Source of the DNA: a virus
Taxonomy: Duplodnaviria; Heunggongvirae; Uroviricota; Caudoviricetes
IMG/VR virus record: IMGVR_UViG_3300027312_000135
Strand: one strand, 5' to 3'
DNA length: 12,244 bases
Shown: positions 1,063 to 5,785 of the stretch, one piece after another
Position numbering within the stretch: the first letter of the stretch is position 1
Layout of the letters: every line of letters begins with the position of its first letter
Position numbers and translations under genes: made by a program
Notes under the pieces: generated by a model
Told to the model about the DNA's origin: nothing
Seen by the model: the letters and a program-made list of their open reading frames with translations, nothing else
Database searches by the model: none

Positions 1063-1755
1063 TTATCTCCCTTTCCTGACGAGAGCTTTCAGCCGGGCAA
1101 CGTTGTCCAGTGCCTTTTCGCTGGCTGTAGGCATGTAGAGCTTTTCCAGCTGCGCGCGCGGTGGGGGAATTTCTTCACCAGACTCGATGCGCGATGCCAT
1201 TTTGCGAAGCTCGGCGCGGCACTTTGCGCGCAGCTCAGGCTCAGAGAGGTTATTGGCGCGCATGGTGCTGTACAGTCCGGTGACCATCCAGTATGCGGCG
1301 TTGCTTTCCCACGGATACGCCTCGGGGCTGTCGATCAGACCGCGGCGGGCGGAGTACTTCATCACCATGTCATACAGACCGTCTTCGTCCGGCAGACCAG
1401 CGGAGCGGAGCTCGCCCTGCTTGCACCACTCGATAAATTGCCCAGGCGACGGCCAGAACGGCGAGGCACTGGCGCGGGCGTGCTTCATGCCGGCCGACAG
1501 CTGCTGCTTCGTGCTGATGTCGTTTTCAGCGAAGGCGGCGAGCCACTGACGCTTGGCTGAGGCTTCGTCGCGCGGATCCTTCAGCGCAGTGCTGACCGAT
1601 GCGGGAAAAACCTGCTTCAGGCTCATGAACAGCATGTCGACCAGACGCTCAACGGTTTCGTTAACGCCACGATCCACCGGCTGTGGGCCATCACCAGCCA
1701 TGCGGGCCAGCGCGCTGCTGTCGCGGTTGTTTATTGCGGCTACGAGATTTCTCAT
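1063..1755 (-). CDS. P: Lambda P-like replication protein (helicase loader)
   Basis: Translation (from M7 of the track ORF) shows blocks I recall from lambda P: SPGQFIEWC, YPWESNAAYWMVTGLYSTMRANNLSEPELR, RQWLAAFAENDIS. The ATG at 1755..1753 overlaps the O stop (ATGA). Confidence 0.85.
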   Translation of the reverse strand: MRNLVAAINNRDSSALARMAGDGPQPVDRGVNETVERLVDMLFMSLKQVFPASVSTALKDPRDEASAKRQWLAAFAENDISTKQQLSAGMKHARASASPFWPSPGQFIEWCKQGELRSAGLPDEDGLYDMVMKYSARRGLIDSPEAYPWESNAAYWMVTGLYSTMRANNLSEPELRAKCRAELRKMASRIESGEEIPPPRAQLEKLYMPTASEKALDNVARLKALVRKGR

Positions 1756-2675
1756 ATGAAATTTTCCTCCCACTCTCTGCGGTCGTTCCAGTGTGGAATC
1801 TGCTGCTGTGAACTGGATGGCGCGTTGCGGGCCGGCTGGCTCATCTGCGCTTTAAGGGTCGCCCACTGCTTTCGCAGCTTCGACGGGCTGAGGATGTTGG
1901 TCTGCCAGAACTGATTGCCGTTCGCCCAGGTGAAGACTTCGCAGATTTCCCGGTGGCTGACCTTCAGGGAATCGCGCATCAGGCGAATGTCGTTTGCCCA
2001 GGCTGGCCAGTTGGGTTGCTGTGCTGTCGGGGTGATCACCTGAACCTTGCTGAAAATCCACTGAGCAGCCAGAAGGTCTTCAGCGGTTCCCCACTTATCG
2101 CCCTTAGGTGAATGAACCGCTGCATCAGGCCGAACAACAGGAAGACTTTTCAGACGCTCGTCAGAGGATTCGCCAGAATTCTCGGACGTATGTTTAATGT
2201 CTTTTTTGTCTTTTGTAATAGTGTCTTTTGTGTGTCCCTGTTTTGGTGACATCCCTGTCACTGTTTTGGTGACACTTTTTGTCACTGTTTTGGTGACGGT
2301 GACACCATCTTGGTGACACTCTGGAATTTGCCACTCAGCGAGGTTCTTATTAGGCCCGATTAGCATGCCTTCCCGGACCAGAACACCCATCTGAATAAGC
2401 TCGTTTTTCGCCTTGTTCACCTTCTGCCTGGGCAGTCTGGTGAGCTGGCTTATCTGGCTGTCAGCAATGCGATCCATCTTTTTGTTGAAGCCGTATGTTT
2501 TCCGGCAAACAGCATGCGCAACCTTCGCCTGGTTCCTGGTCAGGTTGGCCCCTATCAGCTCTTCGTACAGCTCGTTTGCCAGACGCGTATATCCGTCGTC
2601 TGTGTCTGCCACACGTTGCTCCACGGCCCGGAGTTCGGGCCTGATTGGCGTTACATTTGCGAGAGCGAGGCTCAT
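1752..2675 (-). CDS. O: Lambda O-like replication initiator
   Basis: The N-terminal region (VADTDDGYTRLANELYEE...RKTYGFNKKMDRIADSQISQLTRLP...GPNKNLAEWQIPE) closely matches the lambda O N-terminal domain as I recall it. The central KTVTKTVTKSVTKTVT linker is encoded by the iteron repeats. Start overlaps the ParB-like stop. Confidence 0.9.
   Translation of the reverse strand: MSLALANVTPIRPELRAVEQRVADTDDGYTRLANELYEELIGANLTRNQAKVAHAVCRKTYGFNKKMDRIADSQISQLTRLPRQKVNKAKNELIQMGVLVREGMLIGPNKNLAEWQIPECHQDGVTVTKTVTKSVTKTVTGMSPKQGHTKDTITKDKKDIKHTSENSGESSDERLKSLPVVRPDAAVHSPKGDKWGTAEDLLAAQWIFSKVQVITPTAQQPNWPAWANDIRLMRDSLKVSHREICEVFTWANGNQFWQTNILSPSKLRKQWATLKAQMSQPARNAPSSSQQQIPHWNDRREWEENFI
2234..2317. repeat. 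Replication origin iterons inside the O gene, with adjacent AT-rich region (about 2195..2233)
   Basis: Three direct copies of the 17-mer GTCACTGTTTTGGTGAC (first copy GTCCC variant) at 2234..2250, 2257..2273 and 2281..2297, each with inverted-repeat arms, plus a degenerate fourth at about 2299..2317. A T-rich stretch (tgtcttttttgtcttttgtaatagtgtcttttgtg) lies downstream in the O reading direction, as in ori-lambda. Confidence 0.7.
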
Positions 2676-3475
2676 TTTGCCTCCTCCGGCTCTGTTGCAT
2701 CACCTAACACCCAACGGAGCGCTGCGGCGTAATCGCCGGTTGTCTCTGTCAGTGCCTGGGTAATTTCTTTGCGGGATCTCATGCGGGGTTTGCTTTCGCC
2801 CATCACGGCGCGCTGACGGCGGGCTCTTTCATGGCCCTTCGCTTCTGCACCGACTTGCGTTAGTTCTTTCACCTTGGCGCGCTGCTCTTCAGGCGGCATT
2901 GTTGACAGCTGGCGAGCATGCGTGACCGTCACCTGTCCGCCCTCTACTGCGTCCTGCACAGCCTGCGTGCAGTCCAGCAGTGCCAGGGTAGCTTTTACAG
3001 TCTGAAGGCTGCAGCCGAAAAGCAGCCCTAAATCCTGCTCATCGTGTCCGCGTTCAATCATCGCCGCCATTTTCTTTGCCCGCCCAAGGGGCGTATCGGC
3101 GCGCCGGATTTCGTTCGCGCTGACCATGTACTGGGACATGCGCACTGCCGATCCCCGCTTAGCGATTGCTGGCACGAGTACCGGTTCTTTACCTTCTGCC
3201 GCCAGGCGAATATTAGCCTCCAGGCTATGCCGGACCCGCTGACGACCGTCGACAACGCAGACCTTGCCGGATTCGGGATCTTTCCAGCACAGAACAGGCT
3301 CCAGAACGCCCTGATCCATGATGTTCAGCACCATCGCTTCGTCGATAGGCAGGTGAATGCGCTCGTCATAAAGCGGGTGTGATGGGTTGGTAACCAGGTA
3401 CAGGGCGCCCGGTTCGAAAAACAGCACGTTGCTTTTGCCGCTGGCGCCGTAAGCGTCGATTGAGTTCTTAGCCAT
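2672..3475 (-). CDS. ParB-like nuclease domain protein
   Basis: Track ORF with a GGAGG SD 5 nt before the ATG at 3475. Contains a VVDGRQRVRHSLEAN block resembling the ParB/Srx N-terminal arginine motif. Sits in the usual position between cII and O. Confidence 0.7.
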   Translation of the reverse strand: MAKNSIDAYGASGKSNVLFFEPGALYLVTNPSHPLYDERIHLPIDEAMVLNIMDQGVLEPVLCWKDPESGKVCVVDGRQRVRHSLEANIRLAAEGKEPVLVPAIAKRGSAVRMSQYMVSANEIRRADTPLGRAKKMAAMIERGHDEQDLGLLFGCSLQTVKATLALLDCTQAVQDAVEGGQVTVTHARQLSTMPPEEQRAKVKELTQVGAEAKGHERARRQRAVMGESKPRMRSRKEITQALTETTGDYAAALRWVLGDATEPEEAK

Positions 3476-3549: not shown

Positions 3550-3849
3550 TCAGGCCTCGAAGCTGTTCGCGCAGCTCGGGGCCTTTTCTTTGGTAAGAAG
3601 CTGCTCAATGCGAAGCAGTCTTTGCGCCACTTCAGATTCCGGCGACACAACATCGAGGTAAGCCATAGCGAGGCTCATCATCTGGAAGAAGCTGTGTTTC
3701 TGCATTCCCGATCTGCGCTTCATTCGGCTTATGGTCGCTTCATCCATATCAAGCACTTTCGCCAGAGTTCCTTGTCCGCGTTCAGCCAGCTTGTTCAGTA
3801 ACTGACTTTCGATTTCTCGCGCTTTTTTGCGATAACTTGCAATTTCCAT
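3550..3849 (-). CDS. cII: CII-like transcriptional activator
   Basis: Translation MEIASYRKKAREIESQLLNKLAERGQGTLAKVLDMDEATISRMKRR... parallels lambda CII (IESALLNKIA...VGVDKSQISRWKR) as recalled. Located downstream of cro and nutR. Confidence 0.8.
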   Translation of the reverse strand: MEIASYRKKAREIESQLLNKLAERGQGTLAKVLDMDEATISRMKRRSGMQKHSFFQMMSLAMAYLDVVSPESEVAQRLLRIEQLLTKEKAPSCANSFEA

Positions 3850-3912
3850 GACGTAATATCTCTTTCGTTGAATAAGTTGCGTGACATTGCGGTGAGCAAG
3901 TCACTTAAGGTT

Positions 3913-3954
3913 TCCCCACACGGGCGGGGACGGGTTTCAGAGTGTTAAAGAGCG
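3913..3954 (-). promoter_or_regulatory. nutR-like site: boxA plus boxB hairpin on the minus strand, just after cro
   Basis: Minus-strand sequence CGCTCTTTAACA (rc of 3943..3954) matches the boxA consensus, followed 12 nt later by the hairpin TCCCCGCCCGTGTGGGGA. Both elements are near-identical to the plus-strand site at 5286..5332. Confidence 0.6.
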
Positions 3955-3960
3955 GTGTTA

Positions 3961-4176
3961 CTAAGAGGCGGCTAACAGGTCTGCAAGATCAGGGCGAATC
4001 TCGAACGGTTTAACTCGACCCTGCGTGGCCTTGGATATTGCCAACACATATTTGGCATCTATGCCGCCTCCGTGTAGCCAACGCCAAACGGTCGGCTGTT
4101 TGACGCCGCAGAGATCAGCCAGCTTTTGCTGACTTCCTGCGATGTTCACAGCCCTTTGAATAGCTTTGTTAGTCAT
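3961..4176 (-). CDS. cro: Cro-like HTH repressor (YdaS/Cro family), 71 aa
   Basis: Start taken at the internal ATG 4176..4174 (MTNKAIQRAVNIAGSQQKLADLCGVKQPTVWRWL...), with an AAAGGA SD 6 nt upstream. The track's upstream extension would overlap PR and the operators. Diverges from cI. Confidence 0.75.
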   Translation of the reverse strand: MTNKAIQRAVNIAGSQQKLADLCGVKQPTVWRWLHGGGIDAKYVLAISKATQGRVKPFEIRPDLADLLAAS

Positions 4177-4207
4177 AGCAATTCCTTTACGTATTATCAC
4201 AGCAGGA

Positions 4208-4236
4208 ATAATAGCAATGAGTATTGGTAAAGGCAA
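4208..4236 (-). promoter_or_regulatory. PR-like promoter for cro (-35 TTGCCT, 17 bp spacer, -10 TATTAT on the minus strand), overlapped by ATAGCAAT operator motifs
   Basis: The rc of 4231..4236 is TTGCCT and the rc of 4208..4213 is TATTAT, with a 17 nt spacer. ATAGCAAT occurs at 4176..4183 and 4211..4218, and GCAATAGC at 4233..4240. Confidence 0.55.
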
Positions 4237-4248
4237 TAGCTTTCCACA

Positions 4249-4276
4249 TTTGACGGTTAATACGCCTAGCTATAAA
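4249..4276 (+). promoter_or_regulatory. PRM-like promoter for cI (-35 TTGACG, 16 bp spacer, -10 TATAAA), giving a leaderless or near-leaderless cI mRNA
   Basis: TTGACG at 4249..4254 and TATAAA at 4271..4276. The cI ATG at 4286 is about 10 nt past the -10, as for leaderless lambda cI from PRM. Confidence 0.5.
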
Positions 4277-4285
4277 TTGCGGGGT

Positions 4286-4909
4286 ATGAATAAAACTCTC
4301 GCAGAAAGATTGGCTAAGGCCATGCAAGAAAGGGATATGTCCCAGGGTGCTTTAGCTAAAGCATCGGGTGTAGCCCAACCAACTATCTGGCGCCTAGTCA
4401 AAGGTGAGGCCAAGGGTTCGACTCGTCTGGTTGATATTGCGCGCGCTCTGTCGGTGAGCGTTGAGTGGCTGGCTAACGGAACTGGGTCGATGGATGCTCA
4501 GGAAAAGATGACTTATCCTCAGCCACCAGCCAATGAGATGAAGCTCGGAGGGGTGTTTCCTGTTCCTGTCTTTGATCGCTCTAATGAACAAACACATGAC
4601 TATGTGTATGTCCCAAATTCAGTAGAGAGTGATAGCTGTAGAGCTTATATCTTAGAGCGAAATAGCGGGTGTTATGAAGCCCCTGCAGGAACTGTTGTCG
4701 TAGTAGACACAAAGGAAGAAGCTGGTAATGGTGATCTGGTTTACGCCAAAGTTAACGGGGCGTATTCCGTCTATAAATTTGTTGACGGCGGATCCACGGG
4801 TTATCTGTCAGTAGATGATGATCGCGTTCCTCTCGTACCTGCGACAACCGATTCATCCGTAATAGGCGTCGTCGTTTTCCTGCTGCGTGATCTGAAGCGC
4901 AAAAAGTAA
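4286..4909 (+). CDS. cI: CI-like repressor: N-terminal HTH (XRE type) plus C-terminal LexA/S24-like domain
   Basis: MNKTLAERLAKAMQERDMSQGALAKASGVAQPTIWRLVKGE is a typical HTH. The C-terminal ...ILERNSGCYEAPAGTVVVVD...VYKFVDGG parallels lambda CI VEGNSMTAP...LILVD...FKKL around the Ser/Lys region. An alternative start at 4217 is possible but would overlap both promoters. Confidence 0.85.
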   Translation: MNKTLAERLAKAMQERDMSQGALAKASGVAQPTIWRLVKGEAKGSTRLVDIARALSVSVEWLANGTGSMDAQEKMTYPQPPANEMKLGGVFPVPVFDRSNEQTHDYVYVPNSVESDSCRAYILERNSGCYEAPAGTVVVVDTKEEAGNGDLVYAKVNGAYSVYKFVDGGSTGYLSVDDDRVPLVPATTDSSVIGVVVFLLRDLKRKK

Positions 4910-4925
4910 TCCTCTTCATTTTTAG

Positions 4926-4962
4926 GGGGGGTGTATTCTGTATACCCTCCTTGCTTATTTCT
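4926..4962 (+). terminator. Candidate intrinsic terminator after cI
   Basis: Hairpin GGGGGGTGTA / loop TTCTG / TATACCCTCC (10 bp stem with 2 G.U pairs) followed by the T-rich TTGCTTATTTCT. Confidence 0.4.
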
Positions 4963-5182
4963 AAGCAAAGCCGTCGCCATAATCCCTCCCCCTTTTCAAT
5001 CAAATCAGCATTTTATATTTTGAGTCCACCCAAAACACTGTTGTTTTAAACAGTAGTTTTCATAGTGAAACACATCCTCTTATAAATCAAGCAGAGCGTG
5101 ACGCTTTTTTTCTACCCTTCTCAAATCAGTAGCTTGCCACCATAAAACACTAATTTTTTTCGATACGAAATCATTCACTTAT

Positions 5183-5242
5183 GCGTATTGCTATTGAAAT
5201 ATTACCAATACGTATTGCTATGAATAATACGCAATGCTATTG
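5183..5242. promoter_or_regulatory. OL-like operator cluster, three direct repeats (R)CG(Y)ATTGCTAT(T)G, probably overlapping PL
   Basis: GCGTATTGCTATTG at 5183..5196, ACGTATTGCTATG at 5210..5222 and ACGCAATGCTATTG at 5229..5242. The ATTGCTAT core is the reverse complement of the ATAGCAAT motifs in the cro/cI intergenic region. The PL hexamers could not be placed confidently. Confidence 0.45.
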
Positions 5243-5285
5243 TCTACCCCATCAGCAGGACGCAGTACCCAACAGGATGTTGGAT

Positions 5286-5332
5286 CGCTCTTTAACATTG
5301 ATGGGGTTTATTTCTCCCGCCCTTGTGGGAGA
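5286..5332 (+). promoter_or_regulatory. nutL-like site: boxA CGCTCTTTAACA plus boxB hairpin
   Basis: boxA at 5286..5297 is identical to the minus-strand copy at 3943..3954. The boxB hairpin TCTCCC-GCCCTTGT-GGGAGA at 5313..5332 shares the core CCCGCCC(T/G)TGTGGG with the nutR copy. Lies upstream of the N-like ORF. Confidence 0.6.
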
Positions 5333-5515
5333 CCAAAGAGCAGTTGGCTTTGGGATTGGATGAATGCGCAGGCATGGCTGGGATTAGCGAGTATTCCCGG
5401 CGTCGGCTGAAGCCGCTGGATAACAAACCCGCCTTGAGCGGTGGCAAAACCAGCGCGAGTGAACAGCGAGGAGCACCGGCCATCCAATCACCTAAGCCAA
5501 CTACCGGAGGTAAAT

Positions 5516-5785
5516 ATGTTTGCAGCTACCAACAGCGTCAGCCGTCGCTACCTCAAGCGTGGCGAACTGATCGCAAAACGCCGGGCAGAAGCGGCTGAAA
5601 GTAAAGCCCGCGTTGACGCCAGTGCTGAGCGCGTTTCGCGCGCTGTATCGGCGCCGAGCCTTCGTGAGAAACAAGACGTAGTAGCGCTACGCGTTAGTAC
5701 TAAATATCAGAAAATCAGCAACGAAGCTGGCCGTCAGATTCACGCTGTACAGAAGATCCGCGGAAAAAGCATTCCGCTTATCTAA
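5516..5785 (+). CDS. Putative N-like transcription antitermination protein (89 aa, basic, Arg-rich N-terminus)
   Basis: ATG at 5516 with a GGAGGT SD 5 nt upstream. N-terminus MFAATNSVSRRYLKRGELIAKRRAEAAESKAR is arginine-rich like an N-type ARM. First gene after nutL, with nut sites on both divergent transcripts. No sequence similarity to lambda N is claimed. Confidence 0.5.
   Translation: MFAATNSVSRRYLKRGELIAKRRAEAAESKARVDASAERVSRAVSAPSLREKQDVVALRVSTKYQKISNEAGRQIHAVQKIRGKSIPLI

Follow-up and report, generated by a model that had tools for sequence, protein, structure and literature searches.

Predicted 14-bp operators in the cro-cI gap of a lambdoid prophage immunity region

The operators of phage 434 are 14 bp long and have the form ACAA-N6-TTGT, with conserved ends and a variable centre, while those of lambda measure 17 bp, and the OL of lambda lies about 2.4 kb from its OR. 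As for the release of repression, SOS induction proceeds via LexA-controlled antirepressors in several phages, such as 186 (Tum), N15 (AntC), and SPC32H (Ant). GfoA and GftA of Gifsy are LexA-controlled antirepressors, too (PMC3121763). Furthermore, ST104 represents a repressor specificity type, found in the immC region of Salmonella P22-like phages (PMC2629481).

The region analysed in the present work is the gap between the divergent genes cro and cI in a window of 12,244 bases (the window being the whole stretch of DNA that was analysed). Judging from sequence comparisons, this gap is likely to be the right operator of a lambdoid immunity module, where CI and Cro are predicted to bind 14-bp sites, three of them in OR and three in OL. 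The locus resembles lambda in its divergent cI and cro, in having three operators at intervals of about 24 bp in OR and another three in OL, which precedes an N-like gene, in the boxA-like nut site by this gene, and in a cII gene accompanied by TTGC-N6-TTGC repeats. Moreover, OR2 is centred at about -43 from the cI start (the OR2 of lambda lies at about the same position), OR3 lies over PRM, and the ATG of cI directly follows the PRM -10. The differences from lambda concern the operators, which are 14 bp long here and of unrelated sequence, the distance between OL and OR (about 1 kb), the strong PRM -35 (TTGACG), the Cro protein, which is of the YdaS/Xfaso1 type, and CI, which has neither a lysine equivalent to Lys192 nor the Ala-Gly cleavage site.

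The helix-turn-helix domain of CI is homologous to that of the 434 repressor, and the operators of both are 14 bp long and variable at the centre, which is presumably not contacted. In contrast to 434, the recognition helix is QPTIWRL instead of QQSIEQL, the half-site is ATAGC/ATACG instead of ACAA, the layout is 5-4-5 instead of 4-6-4, and the C-terminal domain of CI is degenerate; the locus does not have the same immunity as 434. The immC regions of ST104, ST160, SE1, and BTP1 encode an identical QPTIWRL helix and have the same layout of OR2, OR3, and PRM, with the ATG 7 nt after TAAATT. Their CI proteins differ from the present one, with an identity of about 39% that is confined to the N-terminal part. 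These repressors, unlike the CI analysed here, possess a canonical S24 domain (GDSM, VKRL, and an Ala-Gly loop), and another gene stands 3' of cI in these phages (bstA in BTP1, for example).

The region is an ordinary lambdoid OR, whose predicted 14-bp operator specificity is common to the ST104/BTP1 immunity type, and the understanding of lambda-type switches is left unchanged by it. The predicted operator gives a concrete DNA target for the immunity type of several Enterobacterales genera and of ST104, ST160, and BTP1; it would be useful both for predicting homo-immunity and for correcting cI starts that are placed too far upstream.

Gene order and closest relatives

The following features surround the gap:

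1066-1773, minus strand: P gene (Pfam/PHROG)
1755-2675, minus strand: O gene (Pfam/PHROG)
2675-3475, minus strand: ParB-HTH protein (Pfam/PHROG)
3553-3849, minus strand: cII (Pfam/PHROG)
3961-4176, minus strand: cro-like gene, 71 aa, YdaS/Cro family (Pfam YdaS_toxin, E=1.6e-18; PHROG 35)
4286-4909, plus strand: cI repressor gene, 207 aa, HTH_3 and a weak Peptidase_S24 match (Pfam)
4923-4953, plus strand: terminator-like hairpin 3' of cI
5441-5782: N-like antiterminator gene

The repressor gene and cro are divergent and about 100 bp apart, flanked by cII, O, and P to one side and by the N-like gene to the other, as revealed by Pfam, PHROG, and the gene order. The succession of P, O, the ParB-HTH gene, cII, cro, cI, and the N-like gene points to a lambdoid prophage immunity region. 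The ATG of cro is the complement of 4174-4176 and that of cI is at 4286; counting from both start codons verified the length of 109 bp that the initial annotation had assigned to the gap (4177-4285). This gap is less variable than cI itself, with 20% of variable columns vs. 44%. Within the early-right operon, the 267-aa ParB-type HTH protein (2675-3475, minus strand) is encoded between cII and O, a place where such a protein is unusual in a lambdoid phage.

A CI with 100% identity is encoded by Candidatus Pantoea alvi PSNIH6, and near variants are harbored by viral and metagenome contigs; a database look-up for the exact CI protein itself did not retrieve any record. The nearest CI from a phage is that of Yersinia phage vB_YenM_21.09, with 54% identity. 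At the DNA level, probing phages and E. coli genomes with positions 3900-5300 by megablast gave no match, and the Rfam scan of the window detected no RNA family.

Predicted promoters and operator sites in OR and OL

The predicted promoter elements in the two control regions are as follows:

4236-4231, minus strand: PR -35, TTGCCT (promoter scan)
4208-4213, minus strand: PR -10, TATTAT, with an extended TG (TGcTATTAT, 4213-4208); 17-bp spacer, predicted start near 4201
4250-4255, plus strand: PRM -35, TTGACG (promoter scan; invariant in alignment A1)
4273-4278, plus strand: PRM -10, TAAATT (alternative TATAAA, 4271-4276); 17-bp spacer
5239-5244, plus strand: predicted PL -10, TATTGT, with an extended TG; 8/12 together with TTGCTA, under the scan threshold; layout like that of PR

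The gap had been described as carrying near-consensus divergent promoters. A divergent sigma-70-like pair is present, but the term "near-consensus" overstates the match, with PR and PRM each agreeing with the consensus at 9 of 12 positions and the shuffled region yielding a mean of 2.2 such sites. Since shuffled sequences reach 9/12 too, the hexamers of PR and PRM count solely by their location. Nor is the switch distinctively compact, as had been claimed: the predicted starts of PR and PRM are about 85 bp apart, vs. about 82 bp in lambda. In the Yersinia phage, PR has the layout TTGCAT-17-TATTAT, and the PRM -10 reads TAGATT; the PL -10 is TATTAT in locus L001 and TATAGT in the Yersinia phage. 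An alternative PR, TGtGATAAT (the complement of 4192-4200), was rejected, being absent from both the Yersinia phage and ST160.

As far as the repeats are concerned, the initial annotation had proposed that the 8-mer ATAGCAAT is the operator half-site, that it occurs three times in OR, and that it recurs in OL. The window contains four exact copies of this word (at 4175 and 4211 on the plus strand, at 5187 and 5214 on the minus strand), all inside the two control regions. Given that 0.47 copies are expected and that none of 200 shuffles reached four, it is enriched as an exact word. Allowing one mismatch, the enrichment disappears (8 found in the window vs. 11 expected). In OR there are two exact copies rather than three, at the PR -10 and at the cro start, whereas the sequence over the PR -35 is GCAATAGC, which has the ATAGC core of OR2 only and is out of register. 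In OL two copies are exact (5187 and 5214), and the third, AATGCTAT, has one mismatch.

The alignments comprised five different sequences of OR and seven of OL, from loci whose CI identities range from 77 to 100%, and 13 related loci were compared overall. The alignments revealed that ATAGC is invariant, and so is a second block (CGTAT or GCTAT) at a distance of nine bases; the four bases in between vary, and the DNA between the sites varies as well. According to these data, the repressor site is probably a 14-bp pseudo-palindrome of the 5-4-5 type, ATAGC-N4-(CGTAT or GCTAT). The "AAT" of the 8-mer falls in the variable 4-bp centre. The claim of an immunity switch with back-to-back PR and PRM and with operators common to OR and OL keeps its ground, except for the 8-mer as the operator unit.

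The same repeats can also be followed in numbers. ATAGCNNNNNGYAT has five exact matches in the window, every one of them in OR or OL, vs. 0.19 expected. Scored with two half-sites (ATAGC or ATACG), the window yields three perfect sites vs. 0.027 expected and, at a score of at least 9/10, six sites vs. 1.06 expected, and none of 300 shuffles reached either count; these counts were made on the same sequence from which the 14-bp pattern was derived, and the independent support comes from conservation in the relatives only. The predicted sites, together with the words discussed below, are:

4211-4224, plus strand: OR1, ATAGCAATGAGTAT; covers PR from -10 to -23; invariant in close relatives, with a varying flank
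4236-4249, plus strand: OR2, ATAGCTTTCCACAT; 8/10, with a weak right half; precisely between the PR -35 and the PRM -35
4260-4273, plus strand: OR3, ATACGCCTAGCTAT; 10/10; covers the PRM spacer and the beginning of the PRM -10
5181-5194, minus strand: OL3, ATAGCAATACGCAT; central 4 bp vary in relatives, outer 5+5 kept
5208-5221, minus strand: OL2, ATAGCAATACGTAT; invariant; its GCTAT half supplies the PL -35 (TTGCTA, 5216-5221)
5227-5240, minus strand: OL1, ATAGCATTGCGTAT; between the PL -35 and -10
4181-4194, plus strand: possible weak site, ATTCC-TTTA-CGTAT, 8/10; over the cro Shine-Dalgarno
4175-4182, plus strand: exact ATAGCAAT over the cro start codon; not kept in L006, L007, L008, L002, L013, and L009

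Three OR sites and a second cluster in OL were thus found, which are enriched and kept both in sequence and in spacing. From start to start, neighbouring sites are 25 and 24 bp apart in OR; in OL the distances are 27 and 19 bp. The OR spacing of 25/24, as well as the distance of 26 nt from the OR3 start to the cI ATG, recurs in the Yersinia phage, Erwinia persicina, Serratia marcescens, Proteus mirabilis, and Morganella, whose CI proteins share 50-56% identity with the present one; this position of OR3, 26 nt 5' of the ATG, is found in every relative. The Yersinia phage also has the OL spacing of 27 and 19 bp. In Salmonella phage ST160, the OR spacing is 25 and 25 bp and the OR1 14-mer is identical, and the same three OR sites are present in BTP1. 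As for OR2, the window holds 25 sites scoring 8/10, so that its support is given by position and conservation and not by the score: an equivalent site lies 25 bp from OR1 in L009, L003, L013, L015, L018, and ST160, and in L006 and L007 it reads ATAGCTTTCCGCAT, ending in CGCAT (9/10). The centre of OL3 is TATT, TATA, TTTA, or AATT among the window and its relatives, and the gap is most variable at 4225-4230, the six bases following OR1.

What remains to be weighed is which feature of these repeats is the functional unit. That the 8-mer itself, with copies over the PR -10 and -35 and at the start of cro, is the operator half-site appears unlikely, in spite of the excess of exact copies and of the fact that in Serratia, Proteus, and Morganella both OR1 and OR2 begin with ATAGCAAT. 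Variation at bases 6-8 of the word affects OR2, OR3, and OL1 in the window as well as OL3 in the relatives, while ATAGC and the distal CGTAT/GCTAT are fixed; one of the three OR copies does not exist, and the search with one mismatch showed no enrichment. The copy at the cro start, an exact match in the window, is lost in all the distant relatives and in closer loci, being replaced by ATGGCAAT in L006 and by ATGTGCAAT in L007, L008, and L002, and it is probably not an operator. A longer unit was our first reading, that is, 20-bp palindromes ATAGCAATAC|GTATTGCTAT centred on ATAC|GTAT, with OL2 at 5202-5221 and OR1 at 4211-4230. The arms 4211-4230 and 5202-5221 are indeed 90% complementary, and CAATACGTATTG is a perfect palindrome. 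The 6 bp that this model adds to the 14-bp site are, however, those that vary most, 4225-4230 being TGGTAA, TAGCAA, CGGTGA, CAGTGA, or GAGTGA and the extra bases in OL being TTACC in the window vs. ATGTC in L002; furthermore, 20-bp sites placed 19 bp apart in OL would overlap, and OL3 of the Yersinia phage, ATAGCTAGTGCTAT, is a perfect 14-bp palindrome on another axis. The 20-bp operator was dropped on account of these variable flanks and is very improbable. Invariant half-sites with variable centres and flanks therefore speak against either word, of 8 or of 20 bases, being the unit.

Still less credit is due to the idea that the repeats are promoter elements (TTGCTA as -35 and a TAT starting the -10) copied between PR and PL, rather than sites for a protein. 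GCTAT does run into the -10 hexamer at PR, PL, and PRM alike, and the TTGCTA in OL2 is the PL -35. On the other hand, OL3 and OR2 do not lie where they could serve as the hexamers of any promoter, yet their position is conserved, and the distal CGTAT half is conserved without a promoter role. Moreover, the motif tracks the recognition helix, since the repeats of a Xenorhabdus relative whose helix is QSSVWKL are different and of the ATCGC type.

The 14-bp sites would be read by two proteins. CI has a 434-like helix-turn-helix domain with the recognition helix QPTIWRL, which is invariant in the Yersinia, Erwinia, Serratia, Proteus, Morganella, and ST160/BTP1 relatives; the 434 repressor is the best solved relative of this N-terminal domain (E=3e-6 alone, 1e-7 with a profile). 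Cro contains the helix-turn-helix VKQPTVWRW, with the recognition helix QPTVWRW, and its best solved relative is Xfaso1 Cro (3bd1). The resemblance between QPTVWRW and QPTIWRL is in keeping with the same sites being recognised by both CI and Cro.

If the switch works as in lambda and 434, CI at OR1 and OR2 would shut PR, and CI at OR2, at about -43 from the cI start, could touch RNA polymerase at PRM and may stimulate this promoter. OR3 would serve for the negative autoregulation of cI and would also be the place where Cro turns cI off, and OL, about 1 kb away, would likewise control PL and the N-like gene. The sequence data show enriched motifs, conserved half-sites and spacing, hexamers resembling promoters, and homologous proteins, whereas the binding of CI and Cro, the order of occupancy, the activation of PRM, and the transcript start are inferred. 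Searches of the literature did not retrieve any published operator description for this motif, for the Yersinia phages, or for the ST104 immC.

One element that the three-site model does not accommodate is a CGTAT half-site in the cro leader (4190-4194). Located about 16 nt from OR1, it is kept in relatives from Pantoea, Serratia, Proteus, Yersinia (as AGTAT), and Salmonella; the site at 4181-4194 to which it belongs may be a fourth, weak operator. A further operator-like 14-mer, ATAGCGGGTGTTAT (9/10), occurs at 4662-4675 inside cI. It encodes the invariant NSGCY motif, and its conservation is therefore probably due to coding constraint. Between PL and the N-like gene, a boxA-like sequence, CGCTCTTTAACA (5286-5297), is followed by a hairpin, TCTCCCgcccttgtGGGAGA (5314-5333); the boxA is kept in the relatives, and 5286-5333 is a probable nutL.

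The start of cI and its mRNA

The ATG of cI lies close behind the PRM -10, as had been noticed initially (with a distance of about 10 nt); it is 7 nt after TAAATT or 9 nt after TATAAA. The stretch TATAAATT is invariant, and the seven bases leading from it to the ATG vary (GCGGGGT, GCGAGAT, GCCGGGT, or GCCGGTT). The distance from the -10 to the ATG is equal in the Yersinia, Erwinia, Serratia, Morganella, and Salmonella relatives, and no Shine-Dalgarno precedes the cI ATG. This conserved distance, together with the missing Shine-Dalgarno, makes it plausible that the predicted PRM yields a leaderless cI mRNA, which would start at the ATG or within 2 nt of it. For the homologous cI of BTP1, the transcript is predicted to begin at an ATG located 36 nt into the annotated gene STMMW_03541.

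Alternatively, cI might begin at the in-frame ATG at 4217, inside OR1, which would give a protein of 230 aa, a leadered mRNA, and a promoter located elsewhere. This frame is open in every close relative, most cI homologues in the databases are called at 226-232 aa, and extended starts are annotated in the records of the Yersinia phage (L009, 2390-2500) and BTP1 (L012, 1456-1491). We nonetheless regard this start as quite improbable. The variable columns of the 69-nt extension number 6, 3, and 5 at the three codon positions, vs. 57, 37, and 183 in cI proper; the 23-residue extension (4217-4285) was rejected on this non-coding pattern. Moreover, the extension consists of operators and promoter hexamers, the Erwinia relatives have no upstream in-frame ATG (L003 carries an in-frame TAA, by reading), the alignment with the 434 repressor starts at residues 3-6 of the short form of CI, and a start at 4217 would require a promoter within cro. 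The in-frame ATG inside OR1 leads gene callers to lengthen cI by about 23 residues.

Two TTGC-N6-TTGC repeats are located on the plus strand near the cII start, pointing toward cI (3827-3840 and 3877-3890). TTGC-N6-TTGC is the pattern of the lambda cII box for PRE. The count, two vs. 1.0 expected, is not significant alone, and the pair suits a cII-dependent PRE promoter; PRE transcripts would give the cI mRNA a long leader.

The C-terminal domain of CI, the LexA box, and the small ORF

The C-terminal domain of CI (residues 88-207) has a degenerate S24 fold, with a Pfam S24 score of 23.0 vs. a cut-off of 23.3, and most members of the CI family have no Peptidase_S24 match. The Ser-Lys catalytic dyad of the S24 repressors is not present in CI: the column of lambda Lys192 and LexA Lys156 is occupied by an invariant Tyr163 (hhalign probability 95%; MAFFT), with Lys or Arg as the next residue, and Ser127 may be the equivalent of the catalytic Ser. 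The Ala-Gly/Cys-Gly cleavage site is missing as well, the SAGPG loop of the ST160-type relatives being deleted in CI, and the alignment of the CI family contains no conserved Ala-Gly or Gly-Gly. On these grounds, CI is probably not self-cleaving.

Two further features are found at the 3' end of cI:

5036-5055: LexA box, CACTGTTGTTTTAAACAGTA; core CTGT-N8-ACAG at 5038-5053, the core pattern having 1 match vs. 0.12 expected
4801-4980, minus strand: conserved 59-aa ORF; convergent with cI, whose 3' end it overlaps

The LexA box lies 96-130 nt past the cI stop in 11 out of 13 distinct family loci and is absent after the S24-competent cI genes of ST160 and BTP1. A Shine-Dalgarno and then an ORF of 58-68 aa occur on the minus strand between the LexA box and cI; the observation of box and ORF covers the window, L002, L006-L009, L013-L016, L018, and L020. 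A -35/-10-like pair is located upstream of the LexA box on the minus strand, with weak hexamers that were assigned by eye. The 25 N-terminal residues of the ORF are encoded by intergenic DNA and conform to M...L.R...G.Y.........DY, whose invariant residues are encoded by synonymous codons (TTG/TTA; AGA/AGG/CGT; GGA/GGC/GGT; TAT/TAC), which points to a real protein. Its sequence had no match in Pfam, PHROG, or the PDB and one database match only. The module with the ORF is harbored by prophages of Pantoea, Serratia, Proteus, Morganella, and Yersinia and by the Enterobacterales MAG L002; in the Sodalis and Xenorhabdus relatives the LexA box is kept, and a homologous small ORF was not found.

A repressor without a working cleavage dyad and a LexA box before a small gene are traits that the locus shares with the systems of LexA-controlled antirepressors. 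The arrangement is different, since the LexA box is located directly after cI, whereas that of Gifsy is found next to dinI, 1.3 kb past the replication genes, and the small ORF, convergent with cI, overlaps the 3' end of cI, whereas the ant gene of SPC32H is 14 kb from rep. The small ORF and CI have no sequence similarity to Ant or Rep of SPC32H. In lambda, too, LexA represses the promoter of oop, which is antisense to the 3' end of cII.

It is conceivable, and we propose it tentatively, that a non-cleavable CI is induced via the LexA-repressed ORF of 58-68 aa, which would represent a new antirepressor family in a new gene arrangement. DNA damage would relieve the LexA-repressed promoter, and the transcript of the small ORF would then provide an antirepressor and/or interfere with cI in an antisense or convergent manner. 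A LexA box and an ORF beside a non-cleavable CI could, in this case, reveal another route from DNA damage to induction. The Yersinia relatives were apparently isolated by induction with mitomycin C (PMC9224151).

Between the LexA box and OL (5093-5113, plus strand), there is a second terminator-like hairpin with a T-run, AGAGCGTGACGCTTTTTTT. Of its two parts, only the T-run is conserved; the hairpin may insulate PL from read-through. Moreover, two Erwinia loci, L003 and L019 (Erwinia persicina and E. rhapontici, respectively), keep cI, OR1-OR3, and the small ORF and have neither an adjoining cro nor a canonical LexA box. In L019, cI is located near the lysis and Q genes, and both loci look like rearranged prophage remnants.
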